From the NCBI GenBank assembly GCA_934777505.1, contig CAKVNM010000001.1, positions 294,419 to 358,418 of the forward strand: a stretch of 64,000 bases of DNA. The letters run 5' to 3'. How positions within the stretch are numbered: position 1 is the first letter of the stretch; each line of letters opens with the position of its first letter. The notes beneath the pieces were generated by a model. It made no database searches. It was not told the origin of the DNA and worked only from the letters and a program-made list of their open reading frames with translations. A program made the translations under genes and the position numbers. Positions 14,508 to 52,845 of the stretch are shown piece by piece. This DNA is from an uncultured Clostridia bacterium. Its GTDB lineage: Bacteria > Bacillota > Clostridia > Christensenellales > UBA1242.

Positions 14508-14521
14508 TTTTTTAATCTCCT

Positions 14522-23694: not shown

Positions 23695-23790
23695 ACATTT
23701 CCCCCACAACTGCCGTGATAATAAATTTATATGAGAGATTGTGTCGAAAATTGCTTGTACGGAAAAATTTAGGGGAAACAAAACTCACTA

Positions 23791-29449: not shown

Positions 29450-30859
29450 TTATAGTTTTTTAACTTTACTTCCGTCTTTGGTGTCGATAATTTCAAATCC
29501 CATGCTTTTGATTTGCTCACGAATAGCGTCAGCGGTGGCAAAATCTCTGTTTTTCTTTGCCATAGTACGCTTTTCAAGTAATTCCAAAATTTCTGCTGGG
29601 ACATTCTCGTGTTCCGTCTTGCGTTCGCTAGCAAACAACTCGCCAATTCCAATTCCAAGAACGGTGTCAAAGTTTTTGAGTAGTTCCACCTTGGTTTTGT
29701 CGTTCATGTCGGCTTTCAAAACATCAAAAATTGTTGTGATTGCCATGGAAGTATTTAGGTCGCTAGCAAGTGCATCTTTGAACTTTTGATTGAACAAATC
29801 AAATTTGTCTTGCTCTAAACTTTCAGCCGAGTTGACATCAAGTTTTGCAATTTTTTCCATCATTTTGTTGTATGCATTTTTGGCTGAATCCAAAATTTCG
29901 TACGAGAACAAAAGTTGTTTTCTGTAATGCGACTGTAAGCAGAAGAACTTGTAAACATCTGGACTGTAACCTTTGGAAGTCAAAAGTGAAAGCGTCAAAA
30001 ACTCACCCGAACTCTTGCTCATTTTACCATGATTTGTGATTAAGTGTTCAACATGGAACCAATATTTGCACCACTTGTGGCCAATATAACTTTCGGTTTG
30101 TGCAATTTCGTTGGTGTGATGTGGGAATCTGTTGTCAACGCCACCGCAGTGAATATCCAAGTTTTCGCCAAGAGTTTTTAGCGAGATTGCCGAACATTCA
30201 ATATGCCAACCGGGGTATCCAACTCCCCAAGGGCTATCCCATTTGAGTGCTTGATTTTCAAACTTTGACTTTGTAAACCACAAAACAAAATCGTTTTTGT
30301 TTTTCTTGTTTGTGTCTTCCAAAACGGAGTCCCTAACACCAACTGCGGTGTCTTCTTCGTTTTGATTGCCAAATCTAAAATATTTTTCAAGTTTTGAAGT
30401 GTCGAAATAAATATTTCCGTTGCTAGCATAAGCATAGCCAGTATCAAGCAGTTTTGTGATGATTTTAATGTAGTCGTCAATGCAAGTTGTGGCTGGCACA
30501 ACAAATTCTGGCCACTTTAAGCGAAGCGCTTGTGTGTCCGCCTTGAATGCATTTGTGTACTCTTGTGCAATTTCCAAAACAGACTTATGTTCCCTTTTTG
30601 CACCAAGAAGCATTTTGTCTTCGCCAGTGTCGCTGTCGTGTTCGAGATGTCCAACATCGGTTATGTTCATAGCACGCTTTACATGATAGCCAAGATAGTT
30701 TAAGGATTTTTCCAAAACATCTTCCATGATGTACGACCTAAGATTGCCGATATGTGCAAAGTGATAAACTGTTGGCCCGCAAGTGTACATTGTGACCATA
30801 TTTTTGTTGGTAGGCTCAAACTGTTCTATAGTTCTAGTTGCTGAGTTGTAAAGTTTCAT
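29450..30859 (-). CDS. cysS: cysteine--tRNA ligase
   Basis: CGPTVYHFAHIGN (HIGH) and KMSKS motifs. ATG at 30859 (MKLYNS) follows AGGAGAG. Confidence 0.9.
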   Translation of the reverse strand: MKLYNSATRTIEQFEPTNKNMVTMYTCGPTVYHFAHIGNLRSYIMEDVLEKSLNYLGYHVKRAMNITDVGHLEHDSDTGEDKMLLGAKREHKSVLEIAQEYTNAFKADTQALRLKWPEFVVPATTCIDDYIKIITKLLDTGYAYASNGNIYFDTSKLEKYFRFGNQNEEDTAVGVRDSVLEDTNKKNKNDFVLWFTKSKFENQALKWDSPWGVGYPGWHIECSAISLKTLGENLDIHCGGVDNRFPHHTNEIAQTESYIGHKWCKYWFHVEHLITNHGKMSKSSGEFLTLSLLTSKGYSPDVYKFFCLQSHYRKQLLFSYEILDSAKNAYNKMMEKIAKLDVNSAESLEQDKFDLFNQKFKDALASDLNTSMAITTIFDVLKADMNDKTKVELLKNFDTVLGIGIGELFASERKTEHENVPAEILELLEKRTMAKKNRDFATADAIREQIKSMGFEIIDTKDGSKVKKL

Positions 30860-30904
30860 ATTCTCTCCTAGTCTGTCAAATTTTGACATATTTTACTTAG
30901 ATAT

Positions 30905-30934
30905 ATTATAGTTATATTCCACAAAACTTGTCAA
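30905..30934 (-). promoter_or_regulatory. promoter of cysS (TTGACA-18-TATAAT)
   Basis: Hexamers read on the minus strand, leaving a short leader that contains a TGTCAAATTTTGACA hairpin. Confidence 0.55.
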
Positions 30935-31062: not shown

Positions 31063-31096
31063 AAAAAAAGTGCTAACAATTCGTTAGCACTTTTTT
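31063..31096. terminator. bidirectional terminator at the left edge of the phage-like cluster
   Basis: AGTGCTAAC/GTTAGCACT 9-bp stem flanked by A-run and T-run, 7 nt after the holin stop. Confidence 0.7.
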
Positions 31097-31102
31097 GCTA
31101 CA

Positions 31103-31423
31103 TTACTCATTTTTTGTGTTTGGGTTTGGTTTGTCTGTTTGCTTTGAGTCGTATATTTTATCATTAATATCATGACTAATGTTGTCGGCACAACTTTGTG
31201 CTTCGTCTATCTGTTTTTTTAGGTCATCGCTAGGATTATCTTTTTCGTCATCTTTGCTGATAACGCCAAGTGCGATTAAAATTCCAAGAACGGTTGCACA
31301 AATGCTAGTGATTGCAACAATGTTAACCGAAAAATTTAGGACAGTGCCAAGAGTGGTTATTAGCACCACGATTGAAGCAATTAGTCCCACCCAAAATTTA
31401 TAACTTTTCAACTTGTTTTTCAT
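31103..31423 (-). CDS. holin (phi LC3 / LL-H-like family)
   Basis: N-terminal KNKLKSYKFWVGLIASIVVLI, two TM helices and a charged C-terminal tail. AAGGAGAA RBS lies inside the upstream gene. Confidence 0.6.
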   Translation of the reverse strand: MKNKLKSYKFWVGLIASIVVLITTLGTVLNFSVNIVAITSICATVLGILIALGVISKDDEKDNPSDDLKKQIDEAQSCADNISHDINDKIYDSKQTDKPNPNTKNE

Positions 31424-31664
31424 CTGTTTCTCCTTTGGTTAAATTTTTTGTTTTCTTTGACTTTTTGAAAACAATCTGTTTAACCTGTTCGACTTCTGCT
31501 TTGATATCATTAACAACTCCAAGATGGTCTGTTAAATCTTTAATTGTTTGTTGATACTTGTTTTCTCGCTGATGACTGTCTTTTAAAACAAACACAAATA
31601 GTCCCAAAAATAGTACTGCCCAAAGCCCGTTTTTTATTGCCAAATCCAAAATTCGTTCCCACAT
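31398..31664 (-). CDS. BhlA/UviB-family holin-like protein
   Basis: KNGLWAVLFLGLFVFVLKDSHQRENKYQQTIKDLT matches the BhlA/UviB N-terminal TM helix plus the RE.KY signature. Confidence 0.65.
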   Translation of the reverse strand: MWERILDLAIKNGLWAVLFLGLFVFVLKDSHQRENKYQQTIKDLTDHLGVVNDIKAEVEQVKQIVFKKSKKTKNLTKGETDEKQVEKL

Positions 31665-31666
31665 AA

Positions 31667-31834
31667 TTAACCTTCAAAAGATTTTAGCGAAACCGAATTT
31701 AAAAACTCTTGTTTCAAATTTTCATACTCTTTGATGTCAAGACCATTATTGAACATCAAAATTTCTCCGTCAAGAAAGATTTGCTTTTTGTTATACAAGT
31801 CAAAATCTTTTTTCAGCCCGTCAAGCGTTATCAT
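31667..31834 (-). CDS. 55-aa hypothetical protein (unannotated)
   Basis: Hand translation gives MITLDGLKKDFDLYNKKQIFLDGEILMFNNGLDIKEYENLKQEFLNSVSLKSFEG. Its ATG overlaps the upstream stop (ATGA) and it fills the gap to the BhlA gene. Confidence 0.45.
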   Translation of the reverse strand: MITLDGLKKDFDLYNKKQIFLDGEILMFNNGLDIKEYENLKQEFLNSVSLKSFEG

Positions 31835-33357
31835 ATCAAGTTCTCGCTTTCGACCAAATTAACTTTTAAAGTCAAGTTTGATATGTATGCTTTTTGCTCG
31901 GTTGTTTCAATTTTAAAACCTATTTGTTTGCCCGTGAGTCTTACTGGAAATTTGCTGATTGTTTCGCTTCCACGAATTTTGAAAGTCTTTTTTTCTTTCT
32001 CCGTAAAAATTGTTAAGGTGCAGTCGTACTTGCTAATCAAACTAACTTCCTTGACCACTTTTTTCTTGAAAGAATAACCAAGGTCACTGAGTGGCGAACA
32101 CCAATATTTTTGAGTATTGTCTTCAAAAAATTTGCCGTCACTCGTTAGTTCCGCAAGTTTTTTTGTGTTACCAACATTAAAGCAGAACACAAGTTTGTTC
32201 AAGCAGTCGGCTTGAAGCGAAATCATATCGGCAATGTCAAGACCCCTGCAAATTGAATAGGTTTTGTCGAGCGGGTCAAAACAAATCAAGCAGTTGTTTA
32301 TGCAGTTTTCGCTGGACTCGCAACCAACAACTTTGCCGTCATCAAAATTGGCTCTTAAAGCCAAGTAAAACTTTCCGCCGTGATATGCACTAACTGCGTG
32401 CTTGTTGTCGATACCCCTAATCAAGTTTTCAAAACCGAACTCCAATTTTTTTGCGGTAATGCCGTCAAAACTAATAAGACCGTCACGAGTGAGCATAATC
32501 ATTTCGTCACCGCAAATTTGAATAGTGTTTGCGTAAATCATATCACTAGAATGATACATATTTGACCACGAAGGCACATTTTTTTCGTCTTCGTAGTGAG
32601 TTAGTTTTAAGATTGTGTAGTCCCTAAAAATATAGATATGGTTTTGAAAATTGATGAGTTCGTTCATCTTGCCTTGACCGTCATTGACTTCAATCGAGCC
32701 TTCGCCAGCCGTTTTGTCAAACTCGTCACACCAAAGCGGAATGTTATAACTGCTGGTGTATCTTAATGTTTTTTGGTCAATACCAGTGATGTAATAAATT
32801 CGTTTGTTATACTCGCAAAGCGAAACGATTGTTGGACAATTTGGATACGATTTTGGTTGCACCTGACCGTTCCAAACGCACACGCCGTCTGCAACGCTTG
32901 TTAAAACAACCACATCGTTAGAAGCGATTTTTAGGTTGTAGCCTTTAAACTTTTCGGTGTACTCTGGAACTAATCTTGTTGTGGTTGGATATGCTGTGTT
33001 AACCGCAATAAACCAAGGGTGATTGTCGCTAGCATAAAGCACAATTCTATCTCTTTGACCTTGGTGCATTTGGCTATATCCCCTGTAAAAACAAAGCCCT
33101 TTTATGTCGTAATCAAAATCGTCATAGTGAATGATTGTTGTAACGCTATCGTCCAATTTTTGCGTTGGAACAAGAAAATCATTTACGCCAATTCCTTGCG
33201 TTAAAGTTCCATTGTTAAAGTTGAAGTTGTAGCAAGAAACAGCCGTACTCATGCTGGCAATATTTTCGCCAGAATTGATATCAAGTCCCTTGCTAAAATC
33301 GCTAACGGTTAGCGTTATGGTGTCGTTTTTTTTGGTGGTTATGAGTGTGTTTTTCAT
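31831..33357 (-). CDS. phage structural protein, 508 aa (possible tail/nozzle-like protein)
   Basis: Position after the head genes and beta-rich sequence. ATG at 33357 forms TAATG with the upstream stop and follows AAGGTGG. No family recognised by eye. Confidence 0.6.
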   Translation of the reverse strand: MKNTLITTKKNDTITLTVSDFSKGLDINSGENIASMSTAVSCYNFNFNNGTLTQGIGVNDFLVPTQKLDDSVTTIIHYDDFDYDIKGLCFYRGYSQMHQGQRDRIVLYASDNHPWFIAVNTAYPTTTRLVPEYTEKFKGYNLKIASNDVVVLTSVADGVCVWNGQVQPKSYPNCPTIVSLCEYNKRIYYITGIDQKTLRYTSSYNIPLWCDEFDKTAGEGSIEVNDGQGKMNELINFQNHIYIFRDYTILKLTHYEDEKNVPSWSNMYHSSDMIYANTIQICGDEMIMLTRDGLISFDGITAKKLEFGFENLIRGIDNKHAVSAYHGGKFYLALRANFDDGKVVGCESSENCINNCLICFDPLDKTYSICRGLDIADMISLQADCLNKLVFCFNVGNTKKLAELTSDGKFFEDNTQKYWCSPLSDLGYSFKKKVVKEVSLISKYDCTLTIFTEKEKKTFKIRGSETISKFPVRLTGKQIGFKIETTEQKAYISNLTLKVNLVESENLI

Positions 33358-33968
33358 TAGAACCACCTTCTTGACTTCACATAAATTCCGCCAAGTTTGG
33401 CAAAATTTTGATTAAGTGCATTTTCAAATTTTTCCTTCCACATATCGCTTTCGTCATACATTCCTTTGATTAAAGTATAGTATGAACAAACACCATAGCA
33501 CACCGTGAGTAGTGAGAGTTTTCCATAGTAATCATTAAAACTACTTTCAAAATCAAGTTCGTTTGGAATTATTGCGTATTTTATAGTGTAAGTTCCGTCA
33601 CTAACAAGAATATTTCCGCCACTAATGCTATAATTTTGTTTTATTCCACCGCAAGAAATCTCTTTAATTTTAAAGAGTTTTTGAGAAAGAGTATCAATAG
33701 CAATCTTTCCACTTTTACTTGTCACTTCTTCTTCCACAACTATTGGGCGATTTTCGGTTGCAATTTTGATTAAAACGATATTAATCGTATCGAGAATTAG
33801 TCTTAAATCCTTAATCGACTGCTCGTTGTAATAGTCAAGTTCCAAGCCTTCGCAGTTGAACAAGTTTGTGATTGTCATATTATTTTTTTTGCAGTAACTA
33901 ATGCAATTTTTCACATCAAATTCATTCAATAATTTTGCCGTTAAATCTATAATATCTATAACTTTCAT
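33357..33968 (-). CDS. phage structural protein, 203 aa (possible head-tail adaptor)
   Basis: Synteny only. Confidence 0.55.
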   Translation of the reverse strand: MKVIDIIDLTAKLLNEFDVKNCISYCKKNNMTITNLFNCEGLELDYYNEQSIKDLRLILDTINIVLIKIATENRPIVVEEEVTSKSGKIAIDTLSQKLFKIKEISCGGIKQNYSISGGNILVSDGTYTIKYAIIPNELDFESSFNDYYGKLSLLTVCYGVCSYYTLIKGMYDESDMWKEKFENALNQNFAKLGGIYVKSRRWF

Positions 33969-33981
33969 ATAACCTCCTTTT

Positions 33982-34362
33982 TTATTCCCATTTGTTTTGA
34001 TAAGTCTTTAAAAAATCGCCGTCAAAAGTTTTTTGACTCAAAAACTCAAACATTTCTTTTGTTTTAAAAGATGCTTCGTCAATCAAGTTTTGTTCTTGCT
34101 CTCGTTCCAGCTTTTGATTATGCTCCTCCATGTCTTGAAGCAGTTTTTTTCTATGCTCCACTTTGGTTTTTAGAACAAAGTCTACCGAGCGACTATCAAG
34201 AGCCGAAAACGGGAGCACGAGTTCCAAAGTTGACTTTGCTCTTTTGTAGTGGACTTCAAACTTTTTTGACAAAGGATTAAACAAAACAAAGTAGTTTTTG
34301 TCGATACTTTTTAGTCTGTTTGATATGTTAAACAAATCGTTTTTTACTAAAATCTTTTTCAT
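33982..34362 (-). CDS. phage protein, 126 aa
   Basis: Synteny only. The C-terminal half is charged and helical. Confidence 0.55.
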   Translation of the reverse strand: MKKILVKNDLFNISNRLKSIDKNYFVLFNPLSKKFEVHYKRAKSTLELVLPFSALDSRSVDFVLKTKVEHRKKLLQDMEEHNQKLEREQEQNLIDEASFKTKEMFEFLSQKTFDGDFLKTYQNKWE

Positions 34363-34373
34363 AAAAATTAATT

Positions 34374-34399
34374 AAAAAGGCAAAGAAAATTTCTTTGCC
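34374..34399 (-). terminator. intrinsic terminator/attenuator immediately after the capsid gene
   Basis: GGCAAAGAA/TTCTTTGCC 9-bp stem followed by U5 on the minus strand, between the capsid stop (34420) and the next ATG (34362). Confidence 0.6.
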
Positions 34400-34419
34400 A
34401 GTTTAATTACTCCTTTTTG

Positions 34420-35601
34420 TTAGTCTGTTGTTGTGAGTGTAGCAACAATGTTAGAAATTTTTGCTTGACCTGCTGGTTTTTGGCAGATTAAATCTGCGTA
34501 TTTAACGAGTGTTGCTGAATATGTTGCAAAGCCTGCATTTTGTTTTAGAACCTTGCCGTCTTCGCCTTCTAGCCATTGCCAGTCGCAAAGTTGATGCAAA
34601 GCAAAGTCTTTTGTGTTTAGAAGATACATTGTTCCGTCTTCAACAAATCTGTCGGCAACAACTGGAATACCGCTATAACTCATAGCCTTGTATCCGCCTT
34701 GCAAGTCCATAATGTCGATGTTGCGTTTGTTTGTAGACAAATATTGTTGATATAGTCTTTTAACATCGTATGAGCAAGCGATATAGTCAACGGTGCTTCC
34801 AACATTTTCGTCAAGTTTGTCGATTGCGTCTTGAATAACTGTGTCGCTAATCAATTTTTCTGTTGCGTCCATGTGTGGAACTAGCCAACCATTTGTGCTT
34901 CTGTCTACACCATAGATTGTGCCAGTAGAAGCAAAGATTTTGCCAAGACCTGTTAGTTCGTTTCCTTTTGAGCCTTGAACTGTGAGATAGCAGTTTGCAA
35001 CAACCTTTGAATCAAGTGTTTTGCTAACTGTAATTGTTTTATTTGTTCTGTCAACAGATGTAATTCTTGCACCTGCCATTTCGCTAACGATTGCGTTTGC
35101 TGATGTGTAGAAATCAACAACCATGCCTTCGATAAGGTTCTTTACGCTATCCATTGTGATAACGCCACTAGCAACTGATTTTACTGTTGCAAGTTTGCCT
35201 GAGCCATCGCCAAAAAGCATTCTTCCAAAGTTGAATTTGCTAGCCCTGATAAGACCTTCCATTTCGGCGTTCAAAAGGTTAACAAAAGCACCAACAGAAT
35301 ATTCGCTGGCTCTTACTGCCTTGTCTGTGATTTCAATTTTACCGTAAAGGTTTTTAAGTTCTGTAACAAACTTAACATAGTTGTTTCCAGCAGATTGTGG
35401 CAATGCACCTTCTTCTGTGCCTGCACCAATTCCACCATTAATTCCAAATGGTGCAATTTTGATAATTTCTTTGCCATAAACATCTGCCGAAGTTTGTTCG
35501 ATTTTTGCTAAGAGTGGGTTTACTTTGTCGTTTAGTTGATTTGCAACAACATCAAGATAAATTTTCTTTAATGCGTTGTCTGCACTTGTTAATGTAACCA
35601 T
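34420..35601 (-). CDS. major capsid protein (HK97-fold type)
   Basis: 393 aa placed after the scaffold gene. Pattern LYGKIEITDKAVRAS...FVNLLNAEMEGLIRA...MLFGDGSGKLA is typical of Phage_capsid-family proteins. Strong RBS. Confidence 0.7.
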   Translation of the reverse strand: MVTLTSADNALKKIYLDVVANQLNDKVNPLLAKIEQTSADVYGKEIIKIAPFGINGGIGAGTEEGALPQSAGNNYVKFVTELKNLYGKIEITDKAVRASEYSVGAFVNLLNAEMEGLIRASKFNFGRMLFGDGSGKLATVKSVASGVITMDSVKNLIEGMVVDFYTSANAIVSEMAGARITSVDRTNKTITVSKTLDSKVVANCYLTVQGSKGNELTGLGKIFASTGTIYGVDRSTNGWLVPHMDATEKLISDTVIQDAIDKLDENVGSTVDYIACSYDVKRLYQQYLSTNKRNIDIMDLQGGYKAMSYSGIPVVADRFVEDGTMYLLNTKDFALHQLCDWQWLEGEDGKVLKQNAGFATYSATLVKYADLICQKPAGQAKISNIVATLTTTD

Positions 35602-35619
35602 AATATTTCTCCTTTTTTT

Positions 35620-36273
35620 CTACTTATTGTTAACAAGCGACATCATGTATTCTCCTGCTTCTTTGATTGTTTTTGGTTTTGAAGGCGGAGTTATCATCAT
35701 GTTTGCCCCAACTGGCGAAGCCATGATTGGAAGCGTTTTTGACGACATGATTTCGCTCAAATATGTCTCCAAAATTTTTTCTTTGATTTTGTCGTTTTTC
35801 AAAACATAGTTTTCAACAAAATCTTCGTCAACGAGCATTTCGTCTTTTGTTTTGAAGTGGTTTGCCTTTACTTTTTCAAATGCTAAATCAAGGGAGTTTG
35901 GGCTTTCGGCCAAAACTTTATCACTTTTTATAACAGTAGAAATTTCGTCCGCAAACTGTTTTGCGTTTGGATTATCTTCAAAAAATTTGTTAATTTTTTC
36001 GTAATCCGCAAAGCCTTGTGGTGAAGCATCGTTTTCACTAGTAGAAGTTGATGTTTCATTGTCACCTGCTTTTAGTTTGTTTAGTGCTTGACACTTTTTT
36101 GTGAACTCTTTTTCAAGGTTCACATACGCTTTTTCAAGTTCACTAAAATTTTTGAATTTGTTAAGGGAGCCAGATTCTTCAACATTTTGAGCCACTTCTT
36201 CTCTTTGCATAGTAGCACCATTTTTGCTCTCAGTGATGTTTTCTAGTTGTTCCCCGTTTTTTGTTTCTTCCAT
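35620..36273 (-). CDS. capsid scaffolding protein
   Basis: Acidic helical protein between portal and capsid. FKNFSELEKAYVNLEKEFTKKCQ resembles Firmicute phage scaffold proteins. Confidence 0.6.
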   Translation of the reverse strand: MEETKNGEQLENITESKNGATMQREEVAQNVEESGSLNKFKNFSELEKAYVNLEKEFTKKCQALNKLKAGDNETSTSTSENDASPQGFADYEKINKFFEDNPNAKQFADEISTVIKSDKVLAESPNSLDLAFEKVKANHFKTKDEMLVDEDFVENYVLKNDKIKEKILETYLSEIMSSKTLPIMASPVGANMMITPPSKPKTIKEAGEYMMSLVNNK

Positions 36274-36275
36274 TA

Positions 36276-38156
36276 TTATTCTCCTTTTGGCATTAGTTTT
36301 TTGTGTTGATTGATGTGATTTAAAAACACTTGTTTTATGCTTGGATTACGCTTTATCATTTTTTCGTATTCACTGCCAAGCATAAAGGCAATGTGTTCGT
36401 CAATATGCAATTTGTGGTCGTCAATTTCGAGCACTTCCTGACTTGCTCCACCAAGCATTACAAGATTTTCTTTTCCTGCTTTTCTCATGTGAAGTTCGCT
36501 GATATCGTTTTGAGTTTCCCAAATGCCGTAGCCAAGCATTTCCAAGGTTTTGCTTCTAACTCGGTTGGAAATCTTGCCGTTTTCGTCTGCTAAAAGACCC
36601 GCCTCCAAAAGTTTGAAAATCATGTTTCGCTTTTGAGCCAAAGTGTCGCCAATTTCGTTGGCGGTTTCTAGCACAACATCGTCTGCTCCAATCTCGCTAC
36701 CCTTAAAGTAAAACATTTCAACCGAGCCGTCTTGCCCAATAATTTTGCAAATTCTGGTTGACAAAGCATATTGTTTGTATAGTTTTAAAATTTGCTTACC
36801 CAAAATTTTTACGGCTGATTTGATTTGGTCGGCAGAGTTGCTGAGCCTATTGTTTTCCTGTTCGACCAAGATTTCAAGAGCCACACCCGAAATATTTGAA
36901 GATGTGATATCTTGGCTAATCATCATTTCGGACACACCACTGATACTAGCAAATTCTGCAAGCAAGCGTTCTTCTTCCTTCTCAAAATCGGTTGGCATAG
37001 ACCCTGAGTTCATAATCTCTGGCTTGTTTGCTCCTTGCCTGTAAACCAAAACCTTGCCGGGACTCATTCCCTCTTCTTCCAAGTTTTCGGTGTCAACGCT
37101 TCCGTCTTCAACGGTCAAAATTCCCATTGCCATTCGGTTCATAAACTCGTGCTTACGATTTTTTACTGCGTTGTAGGCTCTTTGAATTGGAATTAATCTT
37201 TCAATAATGCTTGTTCCCCAAAATCTGTTTGCTTCAACAATAGAACACTGCTTGATGAACGGAAATCCACGCTTTTTGTCGTCCTTGTTGATGTATGGCA
37301 AGTCGCCAATAAACACAAGTTTGTCGCCAGCAACTATTGTTAGTCTGCCGTTTGGATAATCCACTGTTGGTGCTTCATACTTTTCAATAACCAGCGCACA
37401 GTTGTCAACTTTTTGACTAATCACTTTGGCAATTTGCGAGTTGTAGCCAAGCCCGCCGATTGTGCTGGAAACATTGTCAAGCGTCATAACATCAAGACTG
37501 GTTGGATTGACATCAACACCCCAAATGCTTTTGATAGTTCTAACATCGTAACATTTTGCGTGAATAATGCTCATGCAGTCATCAATATTTTCCGCATTGC
37601 TGTTGTCTGGAAAAATCTCATAAGGTGGACAAACAACAATTTTTATTTCGCCTTCCTTGATTTCGTTTCCGTGTTCGTCATGACCAACTGTTAGTCCGCC
37701 GTTGCTGTCCCAAGTGACTTTGTAGAAACTTGTTCCGCAAATTTCACTCCAATTTGTTGCCTGAGCAATCAAATCACTCATGCCAAGTTTGTAATAAACG
37801 GCGTTCAAAATGTTTTTGCTAACTTTTGCGGTGTTAAGGTCGTTTTCGCTGTTGGTTGCAGGAACAACATTCATTTTTGGTCTAATTGTTCCAAGTCTGC
37901 TTTTTCGTTGTTCCAAAATTGGTGCAATGTGATTGTAGACTTCTCGCTCCTGCCAAAAAAATTGTTTTTGGAAATCTTCAACTTCGCCCATGCTAGTAAT
38001 TCCGCAATATTGATTTCCACCAAGAAAGTTCATGTTTAGTTGCCACTGTCTTTCGTAATTTTTTCTTGCTTGCTGACGATTTCTAAAATCATGAAGCACG
38101 CTTGCAACGATATCTTCAACAAACTTTTGATTTTGAGCATCTTGTTTTTTAGTCAT
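36276..38156 (-). CDS. portal protein
   Basis: 626 aa, positioned between the terminase module and the scaffold. N-terminal RNRQQARKNYERQWQLNMNFLGGNQY and NHIAPILEQRKSRL are portal-like. Confidence 0.7.
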   Translation of the reverse strand: MTKKQDAQNQKFVEDIVASVLHDFRNRQQARKNYERQWQLNMNFLGGNQYCGITSMGEVEDFQKQFFWQEREVYNHIAPILEQRKSRLGTIRPKMNVVPATNSENDLNTAKVSKNILNAVYYKLGMSDLIAQATNWSEICGTSFYKVTWDSNGGLTVGHDEHGNEIKEGEIKIVVCPPYEIFPDNSNAENIDDCMSIIHAKCYDVRTIKSIWGVDVNPTSLDVMTLDNVSSTIGGLGYNSQIAKVISQKVDNCALVIEKYEAPTVDYPNGRLTIVAGDKLVFIGDLPYINKDDKKRGFPFIKQCSIVEANRFWGTSIIERLIPIQRAYNAVKNRKHEFMNRMAMGILTVEDGSVDTENLEEEGMSPGKVLVYRQGANKPEIMNSGSMPTDFEKEEERLLAEFASISGVSEMMISQDITSSNISGVALEILVEQENNRLSNSADQIKSAVKILGKQILKLYKQYALSTRICKIIGQDGSVEMFYFKGSEIGADDVVLETANEIGDTLAQKRNMIFKLLEAGLLADENGKISNRVRSKTLEMLGYGIWETQNDISELHMRKAGKENLVMLGGASQEVLEIDDHKLHIDEHIAFMLGSEYEKMIKRNPSIKQVFLNHINQHKKLMPKGE

Positions 38157-38373
38157 AATTTTCCTCCTTTAATTTTTTGATAATTAGATTTTTTGGACTT
38201 TTTGGCGTAACAAATTTGCCAATGTTTTTGTACATTTTGTTCAAGCAATCTTTGCACAAACAAAATCTGTGTTTAAAAATATTTTTGTAAGTTAAACAAA
38301 TTGTTGCAATATTTTTGCACTCGTCTTGGTCGCACTTTTTAATGTTTTTTAGTTTTTCAATCGTTATTAACAT
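38149..38373 (-). CDS. 74-aa Cys-rich (zinc-ribbon-like) phage protein
   Basis: CDQDEC...C...CLCKDC. Overlaps both neighbouring genes. Confidence 0.5.
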   Translation of the reverse strand: MLITIEKLKNIKKCDQDECKNIATICLTYKNIFKHRFCLCKDCLNKMYKNIGKFVTPKSPKNLIIKKLKEENYD

Positions 38374-38731
38374 TTCCTTCGTTCTCCTTAATATGTTTTA
38401 AAATTTCATCTATTTTCGCATCAAGTTGTTCGTCCGTTAGGCTTGACAAATCTTCCTTGCTATCAATCTTTTCAAGTTCTAGCAAAACCTTTACTGCCGT
38501 AACATCTGGTGGAACATTCTTGGTGGTGATTTTCTTTTTTACTAAATGCTCGTTTTGGTTTTCGTCAAGCGAAAATTCTTCGATAATTTCCTTACTATCG
38601 TAGCCAACTGCTTTTTTGGTTAAAGCCTTGATGATATCTTGTTTGCTATCAATTTGCTCAAAAAAATCACTTTTTTTGGTGTTTTTAAGTGATTTTTTCG
38701 TGTTTTTTTCTGTTTTTTTGAGTTTATCCAT
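38357..38731 (-). CDS. 124-aa phage protein, weakly small-terminase-like
   Basis: Basic N-terminus. KKKITTKNVPPDVTAVKVLLE resembles the K..PPD.TA..FWLKNR segment I recall from Firmicute phage TerS proteins. 8-nt overlap with TerL. Confidence 0.35.
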   Translation of the reverse strand: MDKLKKTEKNTKKSLKNTKKSDFFEQIDSKQDIIKALTKKAVGYDSKEIIEEFSLDENQNEHLVKKKITTKNVPPDVTAVKVLLELEKIDSKEDLSSLTDEQLDAKIDEILKHIKENEGNVNND

Positions 38732-40166
38732 AAATTCCTAGCCTTTCTCGTTTTAGTGATGAAATCAATTTTTGCTTGTATTTTTGAGTGTCGGTTTGCG
38801 GTTTAAGTTGTTCAAAATTGTCTTGCTTAGACATTATGTAGTACCTTAATTCGTCCATGGAGTGGTCGTCTTTTTTCACTGGCGATTCATCATTTCCAAA
38901 GGTGTAGGATTTGATTTCTCTAATCATGTTTGTGCAATTTTTAAAGATAAAAAGTTTTCTAACTCCGTTTGCGTCACAGATATATTTTCTAACCTTTTGC
39001 AAGCCGACCAAACTTTTGTTAACCTTTGTGTTGCAGTTGATTTTGTAGTTATAAAACTGCTCGGCAACGGTGTCCTGACAGGCAAGAGTTTTTTGAAGCG
39101 AAGCACTATCAATCAAGGCGTTCAAGTATCCTTTGCTGTTTTTTGGCCAGCCAAGTTCGTCCGCTATTATGTGAATTTTTTGAGCGTGCTGTTCAATACT
39201 CGTTTGACTTGCATACACTTCGGCTACAACATAAATATTGCCGTCATAATCACAAGCATAAAAATGACAAGAAAGTGGATTTGTAAATCCGGGATCAATC
39301 GAAATGTTATCAAACCACTCCTTAGGAACATCAAAAGGCTCAATAACATTAAAGTTTTCATCAAAATTTGGATAAACAAGCCCGTTTGAAGATATAAATT
39401 TGCCATCACACCTACTTTCCAACTCCCTCTCACTCATTTGACTTTTTAATTTTTGGACTTCTTGCTGGTTTAAAAATGGATTGTCCTGCCAAGAGATATT
39501 TTCATACCACACTTCGCTATCGTTTCGCTCGTTAAGATAGATTTCGTTATACACCCAAGTTAGACCTTTAAGCGGAGTCATCGTTCCAAAAATTTCTCCG
39601 CACCTGTCAATAACTCTCATCTTACATTCAATGTAAATGTCTTTTGGCGGTTCTTCATCAAACCAAACATAATCAAGCGATGTGCCTTGAAACTTCTCTC
39701 TGCCTTGGTCGCAACTTTTAAAGCCAATTGTACTGATTTTTCCAGATACATTCCTAATCAAAATTTTGTCGATAATACCATACTCCATACTCTCTTTTTT
39801 GCCACTTTGCATAACAACATCAACAATCCAATCTTTGTTTAGGTAGTAAAGTATTTTTTGCTGAGCCACATCTCGTTGAACCTGAGTTGTCAACGAAACC
39901 ACCCAGCCGTCCGTAAACTCTTTGTTGGGTTTGAACGGGTGATTGCCACGAGCAAGCCACACCGTTTCCACCGCACCGCATTCGGTTTTACCCGTTCGAT
40001 TTCCACCAAACACCCACCTGTTTTTTTTGGTGTTTTTGTGAAAAATCAACTGTTTTTCGTGAACTAAACTGCCACAGTTATATCTTTTTAGAGTATTTTC
40101 GCTATATCGCCGATTTTTTTCATAAATCAAACTATCTAGCATTCTTACTAACTTTTGCTTGTCCAT
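38724..40166 (-). CDS. terL: terminase large subunit
   Basis: Walker A GGNRTGKT, Walker B LDYVWFDEEP and a C-terminal RNase H-like nuclease segment SIDPGFTNP...DDHSMDELRY. Confidence 0.85.
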   Translation of the reverse strand: MDKQKLVRMLDSLIYEKNRRYSENTLKRYNCGSLVHEKQLIFHKNTKKNRWVFGGNRTGKTECGAVETVWLARGNHPFKPNKEFTDGWVVSLTTQVQRDVAQQKILYYLNKDWIVDVVMQSGKKESMEYGIIDKILIRNVSGKISTIGFKSCDQGREKFQGTSLDYVWFDEEPPKDIYIECKMRVIDRCGEIFGTMTPLKGLTWVYNEIYLNERNDSEVWYENISWQDNPFLNQQEVQKLKSQMSERELESRCDGKFISSNGLVYPNFDENFNVIEPFDVPKEWFDNISIDPGFTNPLSCHFYACDYDGNIYVVAEVYASQTSIEQHAQKIHIIADELGWPKNSKGYLNALIDSASLQKTLACQDTVAEQFYNYKINCNTKVNKSLVGLQKVRKYICDANGVRKLFIFKNCTNMIREIKSYTFGNDESPVKKDDHSMDELRYYIMSKQDNFEQLKPQTDTQKYKQKLISSLKRERLGIYG

Positions 40167-40234
40167 AACCGTCCTTTTTGTTTAATTTTATTATTTTAGT
40201 AAATACTAATTACATATAATAATTAGGTAGAAAA

Positions 40235-40990
40235 ATGAAAAAATTTGTTTATATATTCGGCTGTTTTTTGTTTGTGTTTTTTTCTATATTTTTGGTTAAT
40301 AGTGTTAAGAAAGAAGAAACGAGTTCATCAAATCTTAGCGGTTACGCCTTTGTTAACACCAATAACTGCTATTTTTATAGGTTTTTGACAACAGAAGAAA
40401 ATCTTAACAACAAATACTTTTTGCTAGAAAAAACTTATTTTGTTAGAGTTATCGAAAACGCAAACGAAGAATTTTACAAAGCCGAATATAATGGAATAAA
40501 GGGATATGTTAAGAAAACAGACATTGAATTTGTTGAAGAAATTCCAGAAAATCCTTTTCTTGTTGGAATAACTTTTGATATCTACTCGGCGTCTAGCGTG
40601 GAGTTACGACTCGAACCGTCCACCAAAAGTGGTATTGGCTCAGTGCTTATGAGTATTCCAGCGGGTCAAAAAAATCTTTCGTATATTGGCAAGATTGCTG
40701 GCGAAGAAAGCATGGACGGGCTTGGTAACATTTGGTATTACGCCAGTTACACGCTTCCAAACGGCAAAGAAATTTGCGGTTATGTTTACTCCCCGCTAAC
40801 CCGAAATCTTAGTCCCATAAGCGAGAATAACGAAAATCTAACAGTGGTTTCCGTCAGTCAATATGTTCCCGTTAGCAGTCTTTTATATCTCAATCTTTCC
40901 ACAAAAAACATGATTATTTTAATCATTTCAATTCCTGCAATCGTGGTTTTATATTTGTTTGTAAAACCGTCAAAAATTTTAAAAGAATGA
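40235..40990 (+). CDS. SH3b-domain membrane protein encoded antisense inside the phage-like cluster
   Basis: N-terminal and C-terminal TM helices with two SH3b-like segments (FYKAEYNGIKGYVKKTDIEF, IWYYASYTLPNGKEICGYVYSP). It has its own -10 and terminator. Confidence 0.55.
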   Translation: MKKFVYIFGCFLFVFFSIFLVNSVKKEETSSSNLSGYAFVNTNNCYFYRFLTTEENLNNKYFLLEKTYFVRVIENANEEFYKAEYNGIKGYVKKTDIEFVEEIPENPFLVGITFDIYSASSVELRLEPSTKSGIGSVLMSIPAGQKNLSYIGKIAGEESMDGLGNIWYYASYTLPNGKEICGYVYSPLTRNLSPISENNENLTVVSVSQYVPVSSLLYLNLSTKNMIILIISIPAIVVLYLFVKPSKILKE

Positions 40991-41001
40991 TTTTTTGCTA
41001 T

Positions 41002-41031
41002 AAAAAACACGAAATTTTCGTGTTTTTTTAA
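41002..41031. terminator. bidirectional terminator between the regulator and the SH3/terminase genes
   Basis: Perfect palindrome AACACGAAAA/TTTTCGTGTT flanked by an A-run and a T-run. Confidence 0.7.
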
Positions 41032-41055
41032 TAAAAATTTGATATTCTTTTGATT

Positions 41056-41583
41056 TTAAGCCATTTTTGGTTTAATACTCAAACAACTTAAAACAGGAGC
41101 AACTTCGCTTATGCCATCTTCTTCTTCGGTTTCTTCGGTGTTAAAGCCGTTAAAGATTTCCTTTATCCAATTTTCTTTTCCAAGCACAAGGTTAAGGCTA
41201 TCGTGGTCGTAACCAGATGCAACAAGTTCGTTGCCAAACTGTTCCAAGGCTCTATCCACCCTTCTAAAAAAAGTTCTGCGAGTCATAGACAAAACTTCTA
41301 TCATCACTTCGGTTTTGAGTCGGTCAAAATATTTTAGCACCAAGAGCCTTGCATTGTTTGCATCAATTTTTGACATGATGTTTTCGATTAGCACTTTTAA
41401 GTTTATAAGTAATTTTTTTCGTTGAATAAGATTAATGATTTTTTCCGCATTTTCAAGAGTCGAAAGTTTGTTTCTGCTGGAATTAACACCTTGGTTTACA
41501 ACTAGTGAGTCTATCGCACTTGCTATATTGTCCAAACAGTTATAACTGGTTAGTAGTGTTTTTGCCCAAATTTTTTGTTTCAT
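41056..41583 (-). CDS. sigma-70 region-4 / ArpU-like putative late transcription regulator
   Basis: ARLLVLKYFDRLKTEVMIEVLSMTRRTFFRRVDRALEQF resembles region-4 HTH proteins of phage (ArpU/RinA, UviA-like). Sits at the head of the cluster. Confidence 0.45.
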   Translation of the reverse strand: MKQKIWAKTLLTSYNCLDNIASAIDSLVVNQGVNSSRNKLSTLENAEKIINLIQRKKLLINLKVLIENIMSKIDANNARLLVLKYFDRLKTEVMIEVLSMTRRTFFRRVDRALEQFGNELVASGYDHDSLNLVLGKENWIKEIFNGFNTEETEEEDGISEVAPVLSCLSIKPKMA

Positions 41584-41612
41584 TTTTATGGTCTCCTTTT
41601 GTGTTCGAGAAT

Positions 41613-41642
41613 ATTATAAAAATCAAAAACTTGCTGTGTCAA
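41613..41642 (-). promoter_or_regulatory. promoter of the regulator gene (TTGACA-18-TATAAT)
   Basis: Hexamers read on the minus strand. Confidence 0.55.
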
Positions 41643-41654
41643 AGGTTTGTGACA
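41637..41654. promoter_or_regulatory. inverted repeat TGTCA-N8-TGACA overlapping the -35 (operator candidate)
   Basis: Read directly. Shares its half-site with the palindrome at 41745-41760. Confidence 0.4.
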
Positions 41655-41744
41655 GATTTTTGTAAAAAAATACAGAATTTTACAAAATTTTACAAATTTG
41701 TGATATTTTATCGAACATCTGTTCTAAATATACCACATTAAACC

Positions 41745-41760
41745 TGACAACAGTTTGTCA
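41745..41760. promoter_or_regulatory. palindrome TGACAA-CAGT-TTGTCA (second operator candidate)
   Basis: Read directly, about 100 bp upstream of the promoter. Confidence 0.35.
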
Positions 41761-41802
41761 TGATTTTCTAAAATTGCCAATTTTTTTGATTTTTTTCTTG
41801 AC

Positions 41803-41835
41803 AAAAAAAGCCAGCGTTTTTTTTGCTGGTTTTTT
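41803..41835. terminator. terminator downstream of the SSB-like gene
   Basis: GCCAGC/GCTGG stem flanked by A7 and T-runs. Confidence 0.6.
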
Positions 41836-45453: not shown

Positions 45454-48165
45454 CTATGCTCTTTTCATTTTTTTGCGGTCGATAAAGTAAATTACAACCA
45501 CGCCAAGCATAACAACAACTAGTAGAATAATAAGGAATTTGCTAGACGCTTTTGCACTATCTTTTGCAGGTGTCATGTTTGCAACAAATTCGCTTTCTAC
45601 ACTAATCAAATTTTCGCTTTGATTTGCTGATTTTACGCTTGAAGCGATATAAGCAACGCTTAGAGTGTTGTTCACATCAAGGTCGGCATATTTTACTGTT
45701 AATTTGTTGTCAACAACTTGCATTTTTTCACCGTTTAGTAAAACATAGTCAATTTCATAGCCACTATCAACATTAAAGTTATAAGTGATTTCTTCGTTCT
45801 CTGCAAGGAAGTTCACGCTACTATTTGTTGATGTTGTGACGCTTCCGTTTTTGCCGTCAAAGTTTGTAATAATACCCTTTTTTGACACTGGAACTTTGCT
45901 AGAATCAAGAGCCACAACAACATAAGGGCTAAAACTATTAACTTTTACAACGATTCCATATTCAGTAATCACTGCGTCAAGAACTTCTGGGTTGTCGTAG
46001 TCGAGTTCACCACTTTCTAGTCGTTTAAAGTGATAAACTTTGAAAGTTACGCCTTTATCCTTTGCAGAATAACCTGCTGGGAAGCCAAAAGATAACTTCA
46101 TGTATGAGCCATTTGGAATGATTGCTTTTTGAGCGCAAACATTCAAGTTGATTTCGTAAGTTTCGCTTTTTAGAACAGAATTTTGTGGAAGATTGGAAGA
46201 AACTGCTTCGCTCAACTCTGCACTGTTTTGTGGAGTTGTAACAACAAGAGCAATTTGACTGCGTTCGTTTTCGCTAACCATTGTGCCGTCTTCTTTCTTC
46301 CAGCCGTTCATTGACAAATCGCCATTGCCAGCAAGTGTTGGTTGACCATATACATCAAGATTTAGTCTGCCGTCATTAAAGATTTTTCCGCAGTAAACTG
46401 AGTCCCTAGAAAATACTGAGCCAAATGTGTTTGGAGCAGAACTTGTTACGCCGTTGATTTCGCCAACCAAGTTTTCAACTTTGAATGTGTACAAAAGTGA
46501 ATTGTGTTGGAACATTGGGCTTGCTTGGAATTTGAACTTGATTGTTCGGTTGCCGTCCCACACATCTTCGCCATATTCTAGCGTAACATATTGTCTTAGT
46601 TCGGCATCGTCAATAGTTCTGTTATTCTTTGCTTTGTAAGTATAAGAGATTGTTACTGGTTTGCTTTCGTCAATTTTTTTGAGTTGTTGGTCGAAAGTAA
46701 CGACAAATTCATACTTTGTTTCAATATTCAAATCTCTTAGTCCAAAATAATCTGGATTAATTGATTGAACATAAGGTGGAGCAACATAATTTGGGTCGTT
46801 GTTGATATTTTCAATTTGACAACTTGTTGCAACGATATTTTCGTCTGTAATGTTATCATATTTTGACCAAACATCGTACTCTTTGTTGTATAAGCCAGCG
46901 TTTGCGTTGATATTTAATACTGCAATTTGCACGCTTTTGATATGAATATCTGCAAACGACACTGTGATTGTTGAGTAGTCATCATAGTTTTTAACGAGTC
47001 CGTCAAATGCAACTGCACAATATTCAAGTGTTGACCATTCGCTGTACTCGTCTTTACCTGTGTTTGTGCTAACAGTTCTCATAGCAATAAACAAATTGTC
47101 TTCTTGTTTCAACTTCAAAGCACCTTTGCTGTCGTAACTAACCGAAATTGTAGTGCTTCCAGAATTATTGAGTTTTGATTCTACTTGCAATTTTCCGTCT
47201 GTTGAAGTTATGTAGTAAGTATAAAGTGTTGGATATGGCATTTTAAAGTTTGACGAAGAAACAATTTGGTCTTCAAAGTGGTCGGCTTTGAAACTTTGAG
47301 AGTCTAGCATCAAATATCTGTTTGGACTAACTTCGCTGTCGTTCCAAGTTGTATCAACACCAAGCCAGTTGCTGTCGATATTAACATAGTTCCACATGTG
47401 TGGTTCAAGTTCGCCTTCGTTAACTGCATATCCTTGCACAAGCACATTTGTGATGTCAAGTTTGTCGAGCAAAACCTTAAATAGTCTTGAATAGCCTTCG
47501 CAAACTGCCTTTTTGTTGATTAATGCACCAAAACTCGTTCTAATCGAACTAGCATATTCCTGCTCGCTACTTGATGAGCAAAAACTATATTCAGTGTTAC
47601 CTGTAACAAAATCATTAACAATTCTAACTTTTTGCTTTGCTGTCAAATCTTTGCCGATATTTGAAACAAATGCTTCCACTGCTTGATTGAAAGCACTAAC
47701 CTTTGCTGGAATATTGGTTGAATTAAATCCGTCAACAAGGTAGTCAGTTGTTCTTCCTGAGCCAATCTTTACGATATAATCATTGTTTTTTTGATAAACC
47801 GAAATGCTTAATTTATCAAAGTCAACATAAAAGATTTCTGCGTGGTCAAATCTGTAACAGTCGAGTGCACTGCCAAAATCTTTGAGCAAAGTTGCATCTC
47901 CGTTTGCGTAATTAGCGCCCATTGCCTTAACGCTAACATCTGTGATTTCATAACTTTCGCCAAGCACAAAAAGTCCGTTTTTATCCATGTAATCAAGTGC
48001 TTGATAGATTGTTTTTGCTCTGCCTGTCAAAGTCTGTCCGTAGTAGCCGAAATCACTTCCAGCATTAGTTGAAGCCGACACTATTTGGCAAAACGAAAAC
48101 ATTGGGCAAATCATTGCTAGAACTAGAATAAAACTAGCAACAACATTTTTTATCTTTTTTGTCAT
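45454..48165 (-). CDS. transglutaminase-like domain surface protein, 903 aa
   Basis: Signal peptide, transglutaminase core (AVCEGYSRLF...PHMWNYV...GVDTTW), beta-rich repeats and a C-terminal TM anchor. Confidence 0.75.
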   Translation of the reverse strand: MTKKIKNVVASFILVLAMICPMFSFCQIVSASTNAGSDFGYYGQTLTGRAKTIYQALDYMDKNGLFVLGESYEITDVSVKAMGANYANGDATLLKDFGSALDCYRFDHAEIFYVDFDKLSISVYQKNNDYIVKIGSGRTTDYLVDGFNSTNIPAKVSAFNQAVEAFVSNIGKDLTAKQKVRIVNDFVTGNTEYSFCSSSSEQEYASSIRTSFGALINKKAVCEGYSRLFKVLLDKLDITNVLVQGYAVNEGELEPHMWNYVNIDSNWLGVDTTWNDSEVSPNRYLMLDSQSFKADHFEDQIVSSSNFKMPYPTLYTYYITSTDGKLQVESKLNNSGSTTISVSYDSKGALKLKQEDNLFIAMRTVSTNTGKDEYSEWSTLEYCAVAFDGLVKNYDDYSTITVSFADIHIKSVQIAVLNINANAGLYNKEYDVWSKYDNITDENIVATSCQIENINNDPNYVAPPYVQSINPDYFGLRDLNIETKYEFVVTFDQQLKKIDESKPVTISYTYKAKNNRTIDDAELRQYVTLEYGEDVWDGNRTIKFKFQASPMFQHNSLLYTFKVENLVGEINGVTSSAPNTFGSVFSRDSVYCGKIFNDGRLNLDVYGQPTLAGNGDLSMNGWKKEDGTMVSENERSQIALVVTTPQNSAELSEAVSSNLPQNSVLKSETYEINLNVCAQKAIIPNGSYMKLSFGFPAGYSAKDKGVTFKVYHFKRLESGELDYDNPEVLDAVITEYGIVVKVNSFSPYVVVALDSSKVPVSKKGIITNFDGKNGSVTTSTNSSVNFLAENEEITYNFNVDSGYEIDYVLLNGEKMQVVDNKLTVKYADLDVNNTLSVAYIASSVKSANQSENLISVESEFVANMTPAKDSAKASSKFLIILLVVVMLGVVVIYFIDRKKMKRA

Positions 48166-48270
48166 ATAATCCCCCTTTTTTCTAGCCTAGTATATCACAC
48201 ACAAAAACAAAAAATCAAACTTATATTAGCAAAAGATAACTACTTTTTTTACTATATCATATAGTAAAAT

Positions 48271-50849: not shown

Positions 50850-50963
50850 CTAAAATCTCTCCTTAAAAAAATATTATTGACATAAAATTGATAAATTTTC
50901 TTGCATTAACAAAATAAATGTGTTACACTATACAAGAATTTTTAAAATGAGAGGTAAATAATC

Positions 50964-51233: not shown

Positions 51234-51238
51234 TAAAA

Positions 51239-51270
51239 CAAAAAACTTAGGGATTTCCCTAAGTTTTTTT
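51239..51270. terminator. bidirectional terminator between rpsT and spoIVA
   Basis: CTTAGGG/CCCTAAG stem flanked by A5 and T7. Confidence 0.7.
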
Positions 51271-51284
51271 GTGCAATTTTTTTA

Positions 51285-52760: not shown

Positions 52761-52845
52761 AAATTCCTCCATGATTTGCTATACTTTAATCTATGAAGAA
52801 ATTTTTTCATATAGAACAAAAATGCACCGAATGTGGTGCATAATT

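Follow-up and report, generated by a model that had tools for sequence, protein, structure and literature searches.

A podovirus-derived gene cluster at a conserved chromosomal locus of gut Clostridia probably encodes a domesticated, SOS-controlled particle of the gene transfer agent type

The DNA analysed here, called the window throughout, is a 64-kb stretch of a low-GC (~36%) Clostridia chromosome (contig CAKVNM010000001.1) that encodes a class A RNase P RNA, hrcA, cysS, spoIVA and gpr. Window positions 31063–41761 hold a phage-type cluster of ~10.7 kb, most of which is a coupled minus-strand operon running from the large terminase gene (terL) to a holin gene, with adjacent genes overlapping by at most 26 nt or sitting 2–57 nt apart. 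In order, the operon encodes TerL, a truncated small-terminase-like (TerS-like) protein, a 74-aa protein, a P22-type portal, a scaffold-like protein, a podovirus-type major capsid protein (MCP), a 126-aa protein, an adaptor, a nozzle, a 55-aa open reading frame (ORF), a BhlA-like protein and a holin. The single plus-strand gene of the cluster (40235–40990) encodes a 251-aa protein. For comparison, we scanned one genome per species across 185,579 species; 387 genomes, mostly gut and rumen MAGs (metagenome-assembled genomes) of Christensenellales or Clostridia, have a relative of the capsid gene; the loci compared below are the best 80 of these 387 relatives (58–85% identity, 80 different assemblies), and individual loci carry L numbers. 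Read from its genes, the cluster probably specifies a domesticated particle of the gene transfer agent (GTA) type.

The genes and terminators, from left to right, are the following.

31063–31096, minus strand: hairpin terminator ending the operon after the holin gene, read from sequence
31103–31423, minus strand: holin, 106 aa (PF04531, 1e-4; phrog_297, 2e-8)
31398–31664, minus strand: BhlA/UviB-like holin-family protein, 88 aa (PF10960, 3e-16)
31667–31834, minus strand: 55-aa ORF, from translation; no tblastn match in the relatives
31831–33357, minus strand: predicted nozzle (hub) protein, 508 aa from the ATG at 33357, the ORF reaching a GTG at 33366 (511 aa) (AlphaFold2 model and Foldseek)
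33357–33968, minus strand: predicted head-to-tail adaptor, 203 aa (AlphaFold2 model, predicted local distance difference test score (pLDDT) 88.8, and Foldseek)
33982–34362, minus strand: 126-aa protein between capsid and adaptor (phrog_17018, of unknown function, 7e-5)
34379–34399, minus strand: hairpin (9-bp stem) with T-run right after the capsid gene, within the operon
34420–35601, minus strand: MCP, 393 aa, podovirus-type HK97 fold (NF033394 capsid_maj_Podo, 250 bits, cut-off 80; phrog_14242, 1e-60)
35620–36273, minus strand: acidic 217-aa protein, putative scaffold by position only; between portal and MCP genes in 73 loci
36276–38156, minus strand: portal, 626 aa, P22/SU10 type (PF16510, P22_portal, 5e-24; PF23899, 9e-9; phrog_156, 6e-41)
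38149–38373, minus strand: Cys-rich, zinc-ribbon-like 74-aa protein, from translation; in 26 loci
38357–38731, minus strand: truncated TerS-like protein, 124 aa (phrog_309 and phrog_23444 family matches)
38724–40166, minus strand: TerL, 480 aa (Terminase_6N, 6e-15; phrog_2, 1e-28)
40235–40990, plus strand: membrane-anchored SH3-like protein, 251 aa, divergent from terL (SH3_3 below cut-off); in 41 loci
41002–41029: bidirectional hairpin terminator with T-run between the convergent regulator and 251-aa genes, read from sequence
41056–41583, minus strand: RinA/sigma-70 region-4-like regulator, 175 aa, putative activator of the late operon (phrog_36, 5e-11)
41805–41835: terminator after ssb

A preliminary description of this DNA, made from the sequence alone, had proposed this gene content and order, and both were confirmed at the same positions by the ORF list and by family searches; hairpins followed by T-runs stand after the holin and regulator genes. 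Its right end at 41654 fell short, since the conserved regulatory region reaches ~41761. The description had recognised no integrase, repressor or replication genes, and we likewise found none in a Pfam scan of window ORFs of at least 100 aa between ~20.9 and 63.9 kb. Integrase, repressor and replication genes are also missing from the annotated 21-kb neighbourhood of one relative, and neither the cluster proteins (Pfam, PHROGs) nor the scanned flanks matched integrase, recombinase or replication families. The claimed lack of flanking direct repeats held as well: around the cluster there are only AT-rich chance matches and no att-like repeats. In the window, the left flank is cysS (29450–30889), which has its own perfect-consensus promoter at 30905–30934, and the right flank consists of a single-stranded DNA-binding protein (SSB; NF004476, 292 bits; PRK05813-type) and a PdaB-like deacetylase. 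The hairpin right after the capsid gene could possibly attenuate transcription, favouring the head genes over the neck and lysis genes.

Walker A (GNRTGKT) and Walker B-like (VWFDEE) motifs are visible in the TerL translation. In the family of the 124-aa protein, the PHROG TerS profile phrog_309 was matched by 20 of 23 members and phrog_23444 by 10, the match of the window protein being limited to profile positions 196–242 of 319. Because this match is confined to the C-terminal part of the profile, the protein may lack the N-terminal DNA-recognition region, from which we infer headful packaging of low specificity. The MCP gave no match to the N4-gp56 family at E up to 0.1 (NCBIfam). Pfam, PHROGs and NCBIfam returned nothing useful for the 126-, 55-, 74-, 217- and 251-aa proteins, and a profile of the 126-aa family yielded only noise against PDB sequences.

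The cluster had been called tail-less, with the suggestion that its 203- and 508-aa proteins might form a minimal podovirus adaptor and nozzle. Fold searches upheld the suggestion, so that "tail-less" was an overstatement. The AlphaFold model of the 508-aa protein, built from 34 homologues, has a pLDDT of 88.6 and a predicted template-modelling score of 0.88, and its best 27 Foldseek matches in the PDB are all podovirus tail complexes, at the nozzle/hub chain (Pa223 9nwi_Y, 2e-19; VP1 8zkk_O; SU10; P22 9jg6_a; T7 gp12). For the 203-aa model, the top matches are mostly adaptor-position chains of podovirus tail or portal–tail complexes (KHP30 7wmp_m, 5e-5; Pa223 9nwi_A; SU10 7z4b_DU; T7 gp11 7box). 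The nozzle had no tblastn match in 50,697 phage genomes, and the fold search was therefore needed to identify it. Thus, the element encodes a neck and a short tail core. With a P22-type portal, a dodecameric adaptor fold and a β-propeller nozzle fold, these three proteins match a virion module of the P22/SU10/T7 podovirus kind, and the gene order portal–scaffold–capsid–adaptor–nozzle is that of these phages. Unlike them, the cluster lacks needle, tailspike or fibre, ejection, replication, lysogeny and endolysin genes.

At its distal end, the position of the 55-aa ORF is taken in some relatives by an unrelated 84–94-aa ORF. The preliminary description saw no endolysin gene, and indeed none is present in cis. 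Elsewhere in the window (45454–48759), a 903-aa transglutaminase-core protein is followed on the opposite strand by a 162-aa Amidase_6 protein (PF12671, 1.5e-36). Among candidate cell-wall hydrolases, the latter lies closest to the lysis genes, which have no endolysin gene with them; in the relatives it is unlinked to the cluster.

Each of the 80 loci is the only one in its assembly. Most belong to MAGs from human, ruminant and rabbit guts that are labelled Clostridia, Christensenellales or Christensenellaceae, and a few have other labels. Their core order is constant: regulator, opposite-strand 251-aa gene, terL, TerS-like gene, 74-aa gene, portal, scaffold, MCP, 126-aa gene, adaptor and nozzle, of which the 74- and 126-aa genes are optional. 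Where flanks are long, the PdaB-like deacetylase and the PRK05813-type SSB lie upstream, and two polytopic membrane proteins followed by RNase J lie downstream. In the closest relatives (L001, L002 and L081), the holin gene abuts the gene of a 271-aa membrane protein, whereas in the window cysS stands between the two, so that cysS is a lineage-specific insertion or translocation into the locus. Synteny at cysS, which the preliminary description had proposed to check, is thus not kept: in those long-flank relatives that have them, the membrane-protein genes and then RNase J come after the lysis genes. Beyond the nozzle the loci vary. In most relatives a DUF7934 protein comes next, sometimes together with a variable gene; some encode a tail protein of 793 aa (phrog_5302) and a tail fibre of 665 aa (phrog_4176); and in the clade of the window nothing but a small ORF separates the nozzle gene from bhlA and the holin gene.

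Two sets of neighbouring genes were considered as parts of the element and rejected. The 271- and 311-aa genes left of cysS were candidates for fibres or lysins because in relatives this pair follows the holin gene, and both turned out to encode polytopic membrane proteins. The SSB and deacetylase genes form a pair that is widespread without the cluster.

How is the cluster inherited? Divergence of its proteins followed that of the host RNase J, with Mantel r values of 0.75 for the MCP, 0.86 for the portal and 0.88 for the nozzle (P = 2e-4 each), and neighbour-joining trees of RNase J, capsid and portal recovered the same clades. By pairwise divergence the MCP was more conserved than RNase J, and terminase and portal were as conserved as the capsid. 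Synonymous divergence (dS) was at or near saturation (at least 0.8) in every pair, even between the closest genomes. The ratio of non-synonymous to synonymous divergence (dN/dS), mostly ~0.05–0.3 where computable and similar to that of flanking host genes, is for this reason a rough, upper-bound-type estimate. Despite the saturated synonymous sites, core genes were close to the length typical of their family in most of the loci that extend to them. The intact reading frames had earlier been taken as a sign of selection rather than decay, and the low dN/dS values agree with that view. By these comparisons, purifying selection maintains the cluster at a single chromosomal site across many gut and rumen Clostridia, the majority of them labelled Christensenellales.

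Free relatives were few. The closest capsids in the 50,697 phage genomes reached 28% identity, and IMG/VR contained 21 short contigs with a relative, none of them a complete phage genome; the 19 close ones keep the gene order of the cluster. Taken together, the conserved order and flanks, the co-divergence, the intact ORFs and the scarcity of free relatives point to a single-copy, vertically inherited and selected element, and argue against a mobile prophage, a satellite or a decaying remnant.

An ordinary origin is nonetheless suggested by several observations: every recognisable gene is of phage type, IMG/VR calls some copies viral, a type I restriction–modification system directly follows the capsid gene in one strain, and one relative (L114) lacks the cluster. 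The locus could then be what is left of a defective prophage, without a function today, or else a small temperate podovirus that is still active. Neither fits well with core genes of near-typical length in most loci from ~80 species, at near-saturated dS and a dN/dS of 0.05–0.3, with a capsid protein more conserved than RNase J, or with the failure to find replication or integration genes and complete phage relatives. We therefore regard a remnant or an active phage as very unlikely.

The preliminary description had offered three readings, a GTA-like particle, a host-domesticated particle and a satellite that borrows tails. The first two drew support from the order of genes in 80 loci, the 387 genomes with relatives, the host flanks of the long loci, the RNase J co-divergence and the intact ORFs, while the third was not supported. 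A capsid-forming satellite, or one piece of a split element, would depend on a helper prophage for its tail fibres, its lysis enzymes or its replication. The compactness of the cluster would suit it, as would a gene set of head and packaging functions without distal tail parts or endolysin, and capsid-forming phage-inducible chromosomal islands are similarly small, with their own capsid, portal and terminase and an incomplete tail. However, such islands are mobile and carry an integrase, a replication module and att sites, none of which was found in the window cluster. Helper-sensing genes were likewise absent from the cluster and scanned flanks, the element encodes its own adaptor and nozzle, and it occupies one fixed locus per assembly, among the same host genes in deeply diverged species and with host-like divergence. 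A satellite is thus very unlikely.

What controls the cluster? The regulator matches phrog_36, labelled "transcriptional regulator", and has a family member in 39 of the 80 loci. Its match to the RinA family TIGR01636 (2e-4, 21.4 bits) lies below the cut-off of 31.9, and the sigma70-ECF region 4 was matched weakly. The control sites are the following.

40167–40234: AT-rich 68-bp intergenic region between the divergent terL and 251-aa genes, which should hold the late-operon promoter
41613–41642, minus strand: sigma-70-type promoter of perfect consensus (TTGACA-18-TATAAT) preceding the regulator gene, itself preceded by conserved TTTGTAAAA repeats
41713–41724, plus strand: LexA (Cheo) box CGAACATCTGTTCt upstream of the regulator gene
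41745–41760: palindrome TGACAAAC/TGTTGTCA (TGACAA-N4-TTGTCA), candidate operator for another factor, read from sequence

The LexA box agrees with the Firmicutes LexA box (CGAAC-N4-GTTCG) at 13 of 14 positions and is the sole GAAC-N4-GTTC match in the 64-kb window. Of 37 loci, 19 have an exact core in the 400 nt that precede the regulator gene, and 11 more have a core with one mismatch. Among 34 occurrences of the core in 1.23 Mb of loci, 19 fall within this upstream portion, which makes up 1.2% of the sequence (P ~5e-28). A conserved operator of this kind suggests that the cluster belongs to the LexA (SOS) regulon, with LexA as the predicted binding protein. In addition to the box, tandem TTTGTAAAA repeats with an inverted copy are conserved upstream of the regulator (41660–41760), as is the perfect-consensus sigma-70 promoter, and the 16-nt palindrome TGACAAACTGTTGTCA is conserved in an alignment of the window with L001, L002, L004 and L007. 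The conservation of palindrome and repeats makes a second DNA-binding regulatory input likely. A canonical promoter around the palindrome and the LexA box was considered and dropped, the 23-nt spacing being non-canonical. The 68-bp region contains an inverted repeat, CTAATTA-N7-TAATTAG; no motif upstream of terL is conserved across the loci, the sole likeness being a loosely matching TTAtTATATG in the close relatives L001 and L002.

From these features we propose, at a probability of about 0.6, that the cluster is a domesticated, SOS-controlled, podovirus-derived and vertically inherited GTA-like particle. Judged from sequence, it has what would be expected of a GTA: it is chromosomal, without functions for integration, excision or autonomous replication, and appears to be inherited vertically under purifying selection across a clade. 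In the mechanism that we envisage, DNA damage would inactivate LexA, the presumed ligand of the conserved box upstream of the regulator gene. The RinA/sigma-r4-like regulator would then be made and would activate the coupled late operon from the 68-bp region between terL and the 251-aa gene. Scaffold, capsid protein and portal would assemble a small head, which the terminase would fill with host DNA through headful packaging of low sequence selectivity, and a 12-mer adaptor and a 6-mer nozzle would close the portal. Finally, BhlA and holin, together with an unlinked cell-wall hydrolase, would lyse the cell and release the particles.

Alternatively, the particles may package DNA without delivering it, in a PBSX-like, lysis-type domesticated element selected for SOS lysis, for release of DNA or public goods, or for killing of or interference with competitors or phages. 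In the lineage of the window, genes for receptor binding, fibres or a needle are missing in cis, lysis genes are within the operon and control is apparently through the SOS response, all of which would fit such an element, and PBSX is a precedent cited in PMC12946183. PBSX of Bacillus subtilis is an SOS-inducible, defective phage-like element of a Gram-positive spore former and packages host DNA, as proposed here; it differs in being myovirus-like, with a contractile tail and ~28 kb, and in acting as a bacteriocin. Yet a head that carries just an adaptor and a nozzle lacks any contractile device for killing. Moreover, many relatives encode tail and fibre proteins right after the nozzle (phrog_5302, phrog_4176), which suggests that adsorption matters in at least some lineages, and the conservation of terminase and portal at the level of the capsid suggests that DNA packaging itself is selected. 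We consider the lysis-type element unlikely, while giving it real weight.

Several points weigh against a GTA-like particle. (i) No needle or plug, fibre or tailspike, receptor-binding, ejection or endolysin gene is present in the window cluster, and homologues of the relatives' tail genes are absent from the rest of the 64-kb window. (ii) L114 (PPCM01000005.1, an 899-kb contig, 10600–15800) keeps the syntenic site but has neither the regulator nor the operon from terL to the holin gene, its order being pda, ssb, two minus-strand genes, 251-aa gene, membrane-protein gene and RNase J. The element is therefore dispensable. (iii) Most pda–ssb loci at 55–62% SSB identity are without the cluster, which is thus clade-restricted and not universal. 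(iv) Between the LexA box and the consensus promoter downstream of it there are 71 nt, and the one promoter-like site that the box overlaps is weak, making the geometry of repression uncertain. (v) Ordinary prophages, too, can be under direct LexA control and have an activator of the RinA type. (vi) What is directly supported are gene identities, folds, synteny, RNase J co-divergence, purifying selection and the conservation of the LexA box; LexA binding, activation by the regulator, non-specific packaging, release of particles and any delivery of DNA are deduced from these, as are the particles, the packaged DNA and the transfer themselves. (vii) The link to packaging data published for Christensenellaceae, described below, is circumstantial.

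L114 nests among cluster-bearing taxa in the RNase J tree, and secondary loss would be the simplest reading of its empty site. Since the 251-aa gene is kept there, it probably belongs to the host and became trapped within the locus.

Very few lineages are known to have GTAs. The GTA of Faecalibacterium prausnitzii (FpGTA), reported in 2026, is the first podovirus-like GTA and the first from a human gut commensal (PMC12946183). Its operon I is 10.5 kb long, podovirus-like and near-ubiquitous in the genus, with the order TerL, portal, Prp-like protein, MCP, small unknown protein, adaptor and nozzle, and its particles of ~40 nm carry 8.4–8.9 kb of random host DNA; genes for fibre, receptor-binding protein, holin and endolysin lie in a second operon ~125 kb away (PMC12946183, Nat Commun 2026). 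The same study describes GTA-type packaging of 4.1–7.1-kb host fragments for Christensenellaceae MAGs and reports no gene cluster for it (PMC12946183). In a GTA, the head would be expected to hold less DNA than the length of its own locus, which in the window is ~10.7 kb.

We compared FpGTA through its published annotations only (RCH50852 through RCH50846), its order being inferred from the consecutive accession numbers. Both clusters are ~10-kb chromosomal operons of gut Clostridia, podovirus-like and free of integrase and replication genes. They share the structural order TerL, portal, a small protein beside the capsid gene, MCP, a small unknown protein, adaptor and nozzle, and in both TerS apparently lacks the DNA-binding region. 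By contrast, the FpGTA capsid is named as N4-gp56 family and that of the window is NF033394 capsid_maj_Podo; a Prp-like protein there corresponds to a scaffold-like protein here; TerS follows TerL in the window cluster; holins and regulator are in cis here, whereas the lysis and fibre genes of FpGTA are in its second operon; LexA-box control, seen here, is unreported for FpGTA; and the hosts belong to different orders. Because the capsid families differ by annotation, the cluster probably lies outside the FpGTA family. No Faecalibacterium names occurred among the ten clusters of the capsid family sampled by a 50%-representative search and cluster look-up, and a literature search found no published description of the Christensenellales cluster. 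No second FpGTA-like operon with fibre, receptor-binding protein, holin and endolysin genes is present in the 64-kb window, to which this search was confined. For the window lineage, fibre, needle or receptor-binding genes may be encoded at another place on the chromosome, as they are for FpGTA; otherwise the particles would be non-infective.

RcGTA of Alphaproteobacteria is likewise a vertically inherited head-packaging cluster under purifying selection with host regulatory input and a dedicated sigma-like activator, GafA. It differs in being siphovirus-like, with tail tube and tape measure, in having proteins unrelated in sequence, and in its regulation, which involves CtrA and quorum sensing instead of a direct LexA box. 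A TerS without the DNA-binding domain is a further likeness, as cited for RcGTA in PMC12946183.

If the proposed reading is correct, the cluster would be a second podovirus-derived GTA-like family, set apart from FpGTA by its annotations and apparently non-orthologous to it; that is, a new instance of a recently recognised kind of element. Christensenellales-type gut and rumen bacteria have repeatedly been linked to host health and heritability. The cluster offers specific candidate genes for the GTA-type packaging that sequencing of faecal virus-like particles revealed for Christensenellaceae, and with its wide occurrence, its experimental tractability and a testable induction route from DNA damage through LexA to the regulator, it may explain the published packaging data. 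A fuller scenario, to which we give somewhat under even odds, is that a podovirus was domesticated independently into an SOS-triggered GTA across much of Christensenellales, that this GTA is the source of the published 4–7-kb Christensenellaceae packaging, and that the window lineage was stripped of fibres in cis. Fragments of the cluster are listed as viral in IMG/VR, which calls for caution with virome and prophage callers.

Some loci differ in what follows the capsid or the nozzle gene. The DUF7934 protein (PF25588, 4e-42; ~300 aa, helical/coiled-coil) stands after the nozzle or after one variable gene in 41 of the 80 loci, for example at 13016–13909 of L034 and 14944–15957 of L044, and is not found in the clade of the window. 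Its profile gave only coiled-coil noise against the PDB, and tblastn against the phage genomes returned no match; candidate roles are those of tail plug, needle and ejection protein. In a clade labelled Christensenellaceae (L034, 15032–16573, and 10 further loci), the genes after DUF7934 look host-type, with a 510-aa protein that has a DnaQ-type exonuclease-like C-terminus (phrog_192, 9e-48). No bhlA/holin pair was detected adjoining the cluster in the 11 loci of this clade, and lysis genes may therefore be outside the conserved core. Two IMG/VR contigs, L086 (6600–15300) and L098 (1000–9700), are 98–100% identical to L051 up to the capsid gene. Past it, three small minus-strand genes and type I restriction–modification genes (hsdM-like, 516 aa; 374 aa; hsdR-like, 946 aa) replace the 126-aa, adaptor and nozzle genes, as if a defence island had inserted into the cluster or taken the place of part of it.

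Sporulation genes elsewhere in the window (49968–52772 and 22996–23781) comprise the germination protease gene gpr, spoIVA and a sigma factor gene beside the RNase P RNA, so the organism is likely a spore former. The preliminary description had raised a sporulation link for the cluster; we rejected it, as nothing ties SpoIVA or Gpr to the cluster and the conserved regulatory signal is the LexA box. Further right, region 57500–60793 holds on the plus strand, opposite to most of its neighbours, a 1097-aa ORF with no Pfam match. The composition of this region is unusual, with an AT skew of +0.13 to +0.26 and a GC skew of -0.15 to -0.24.

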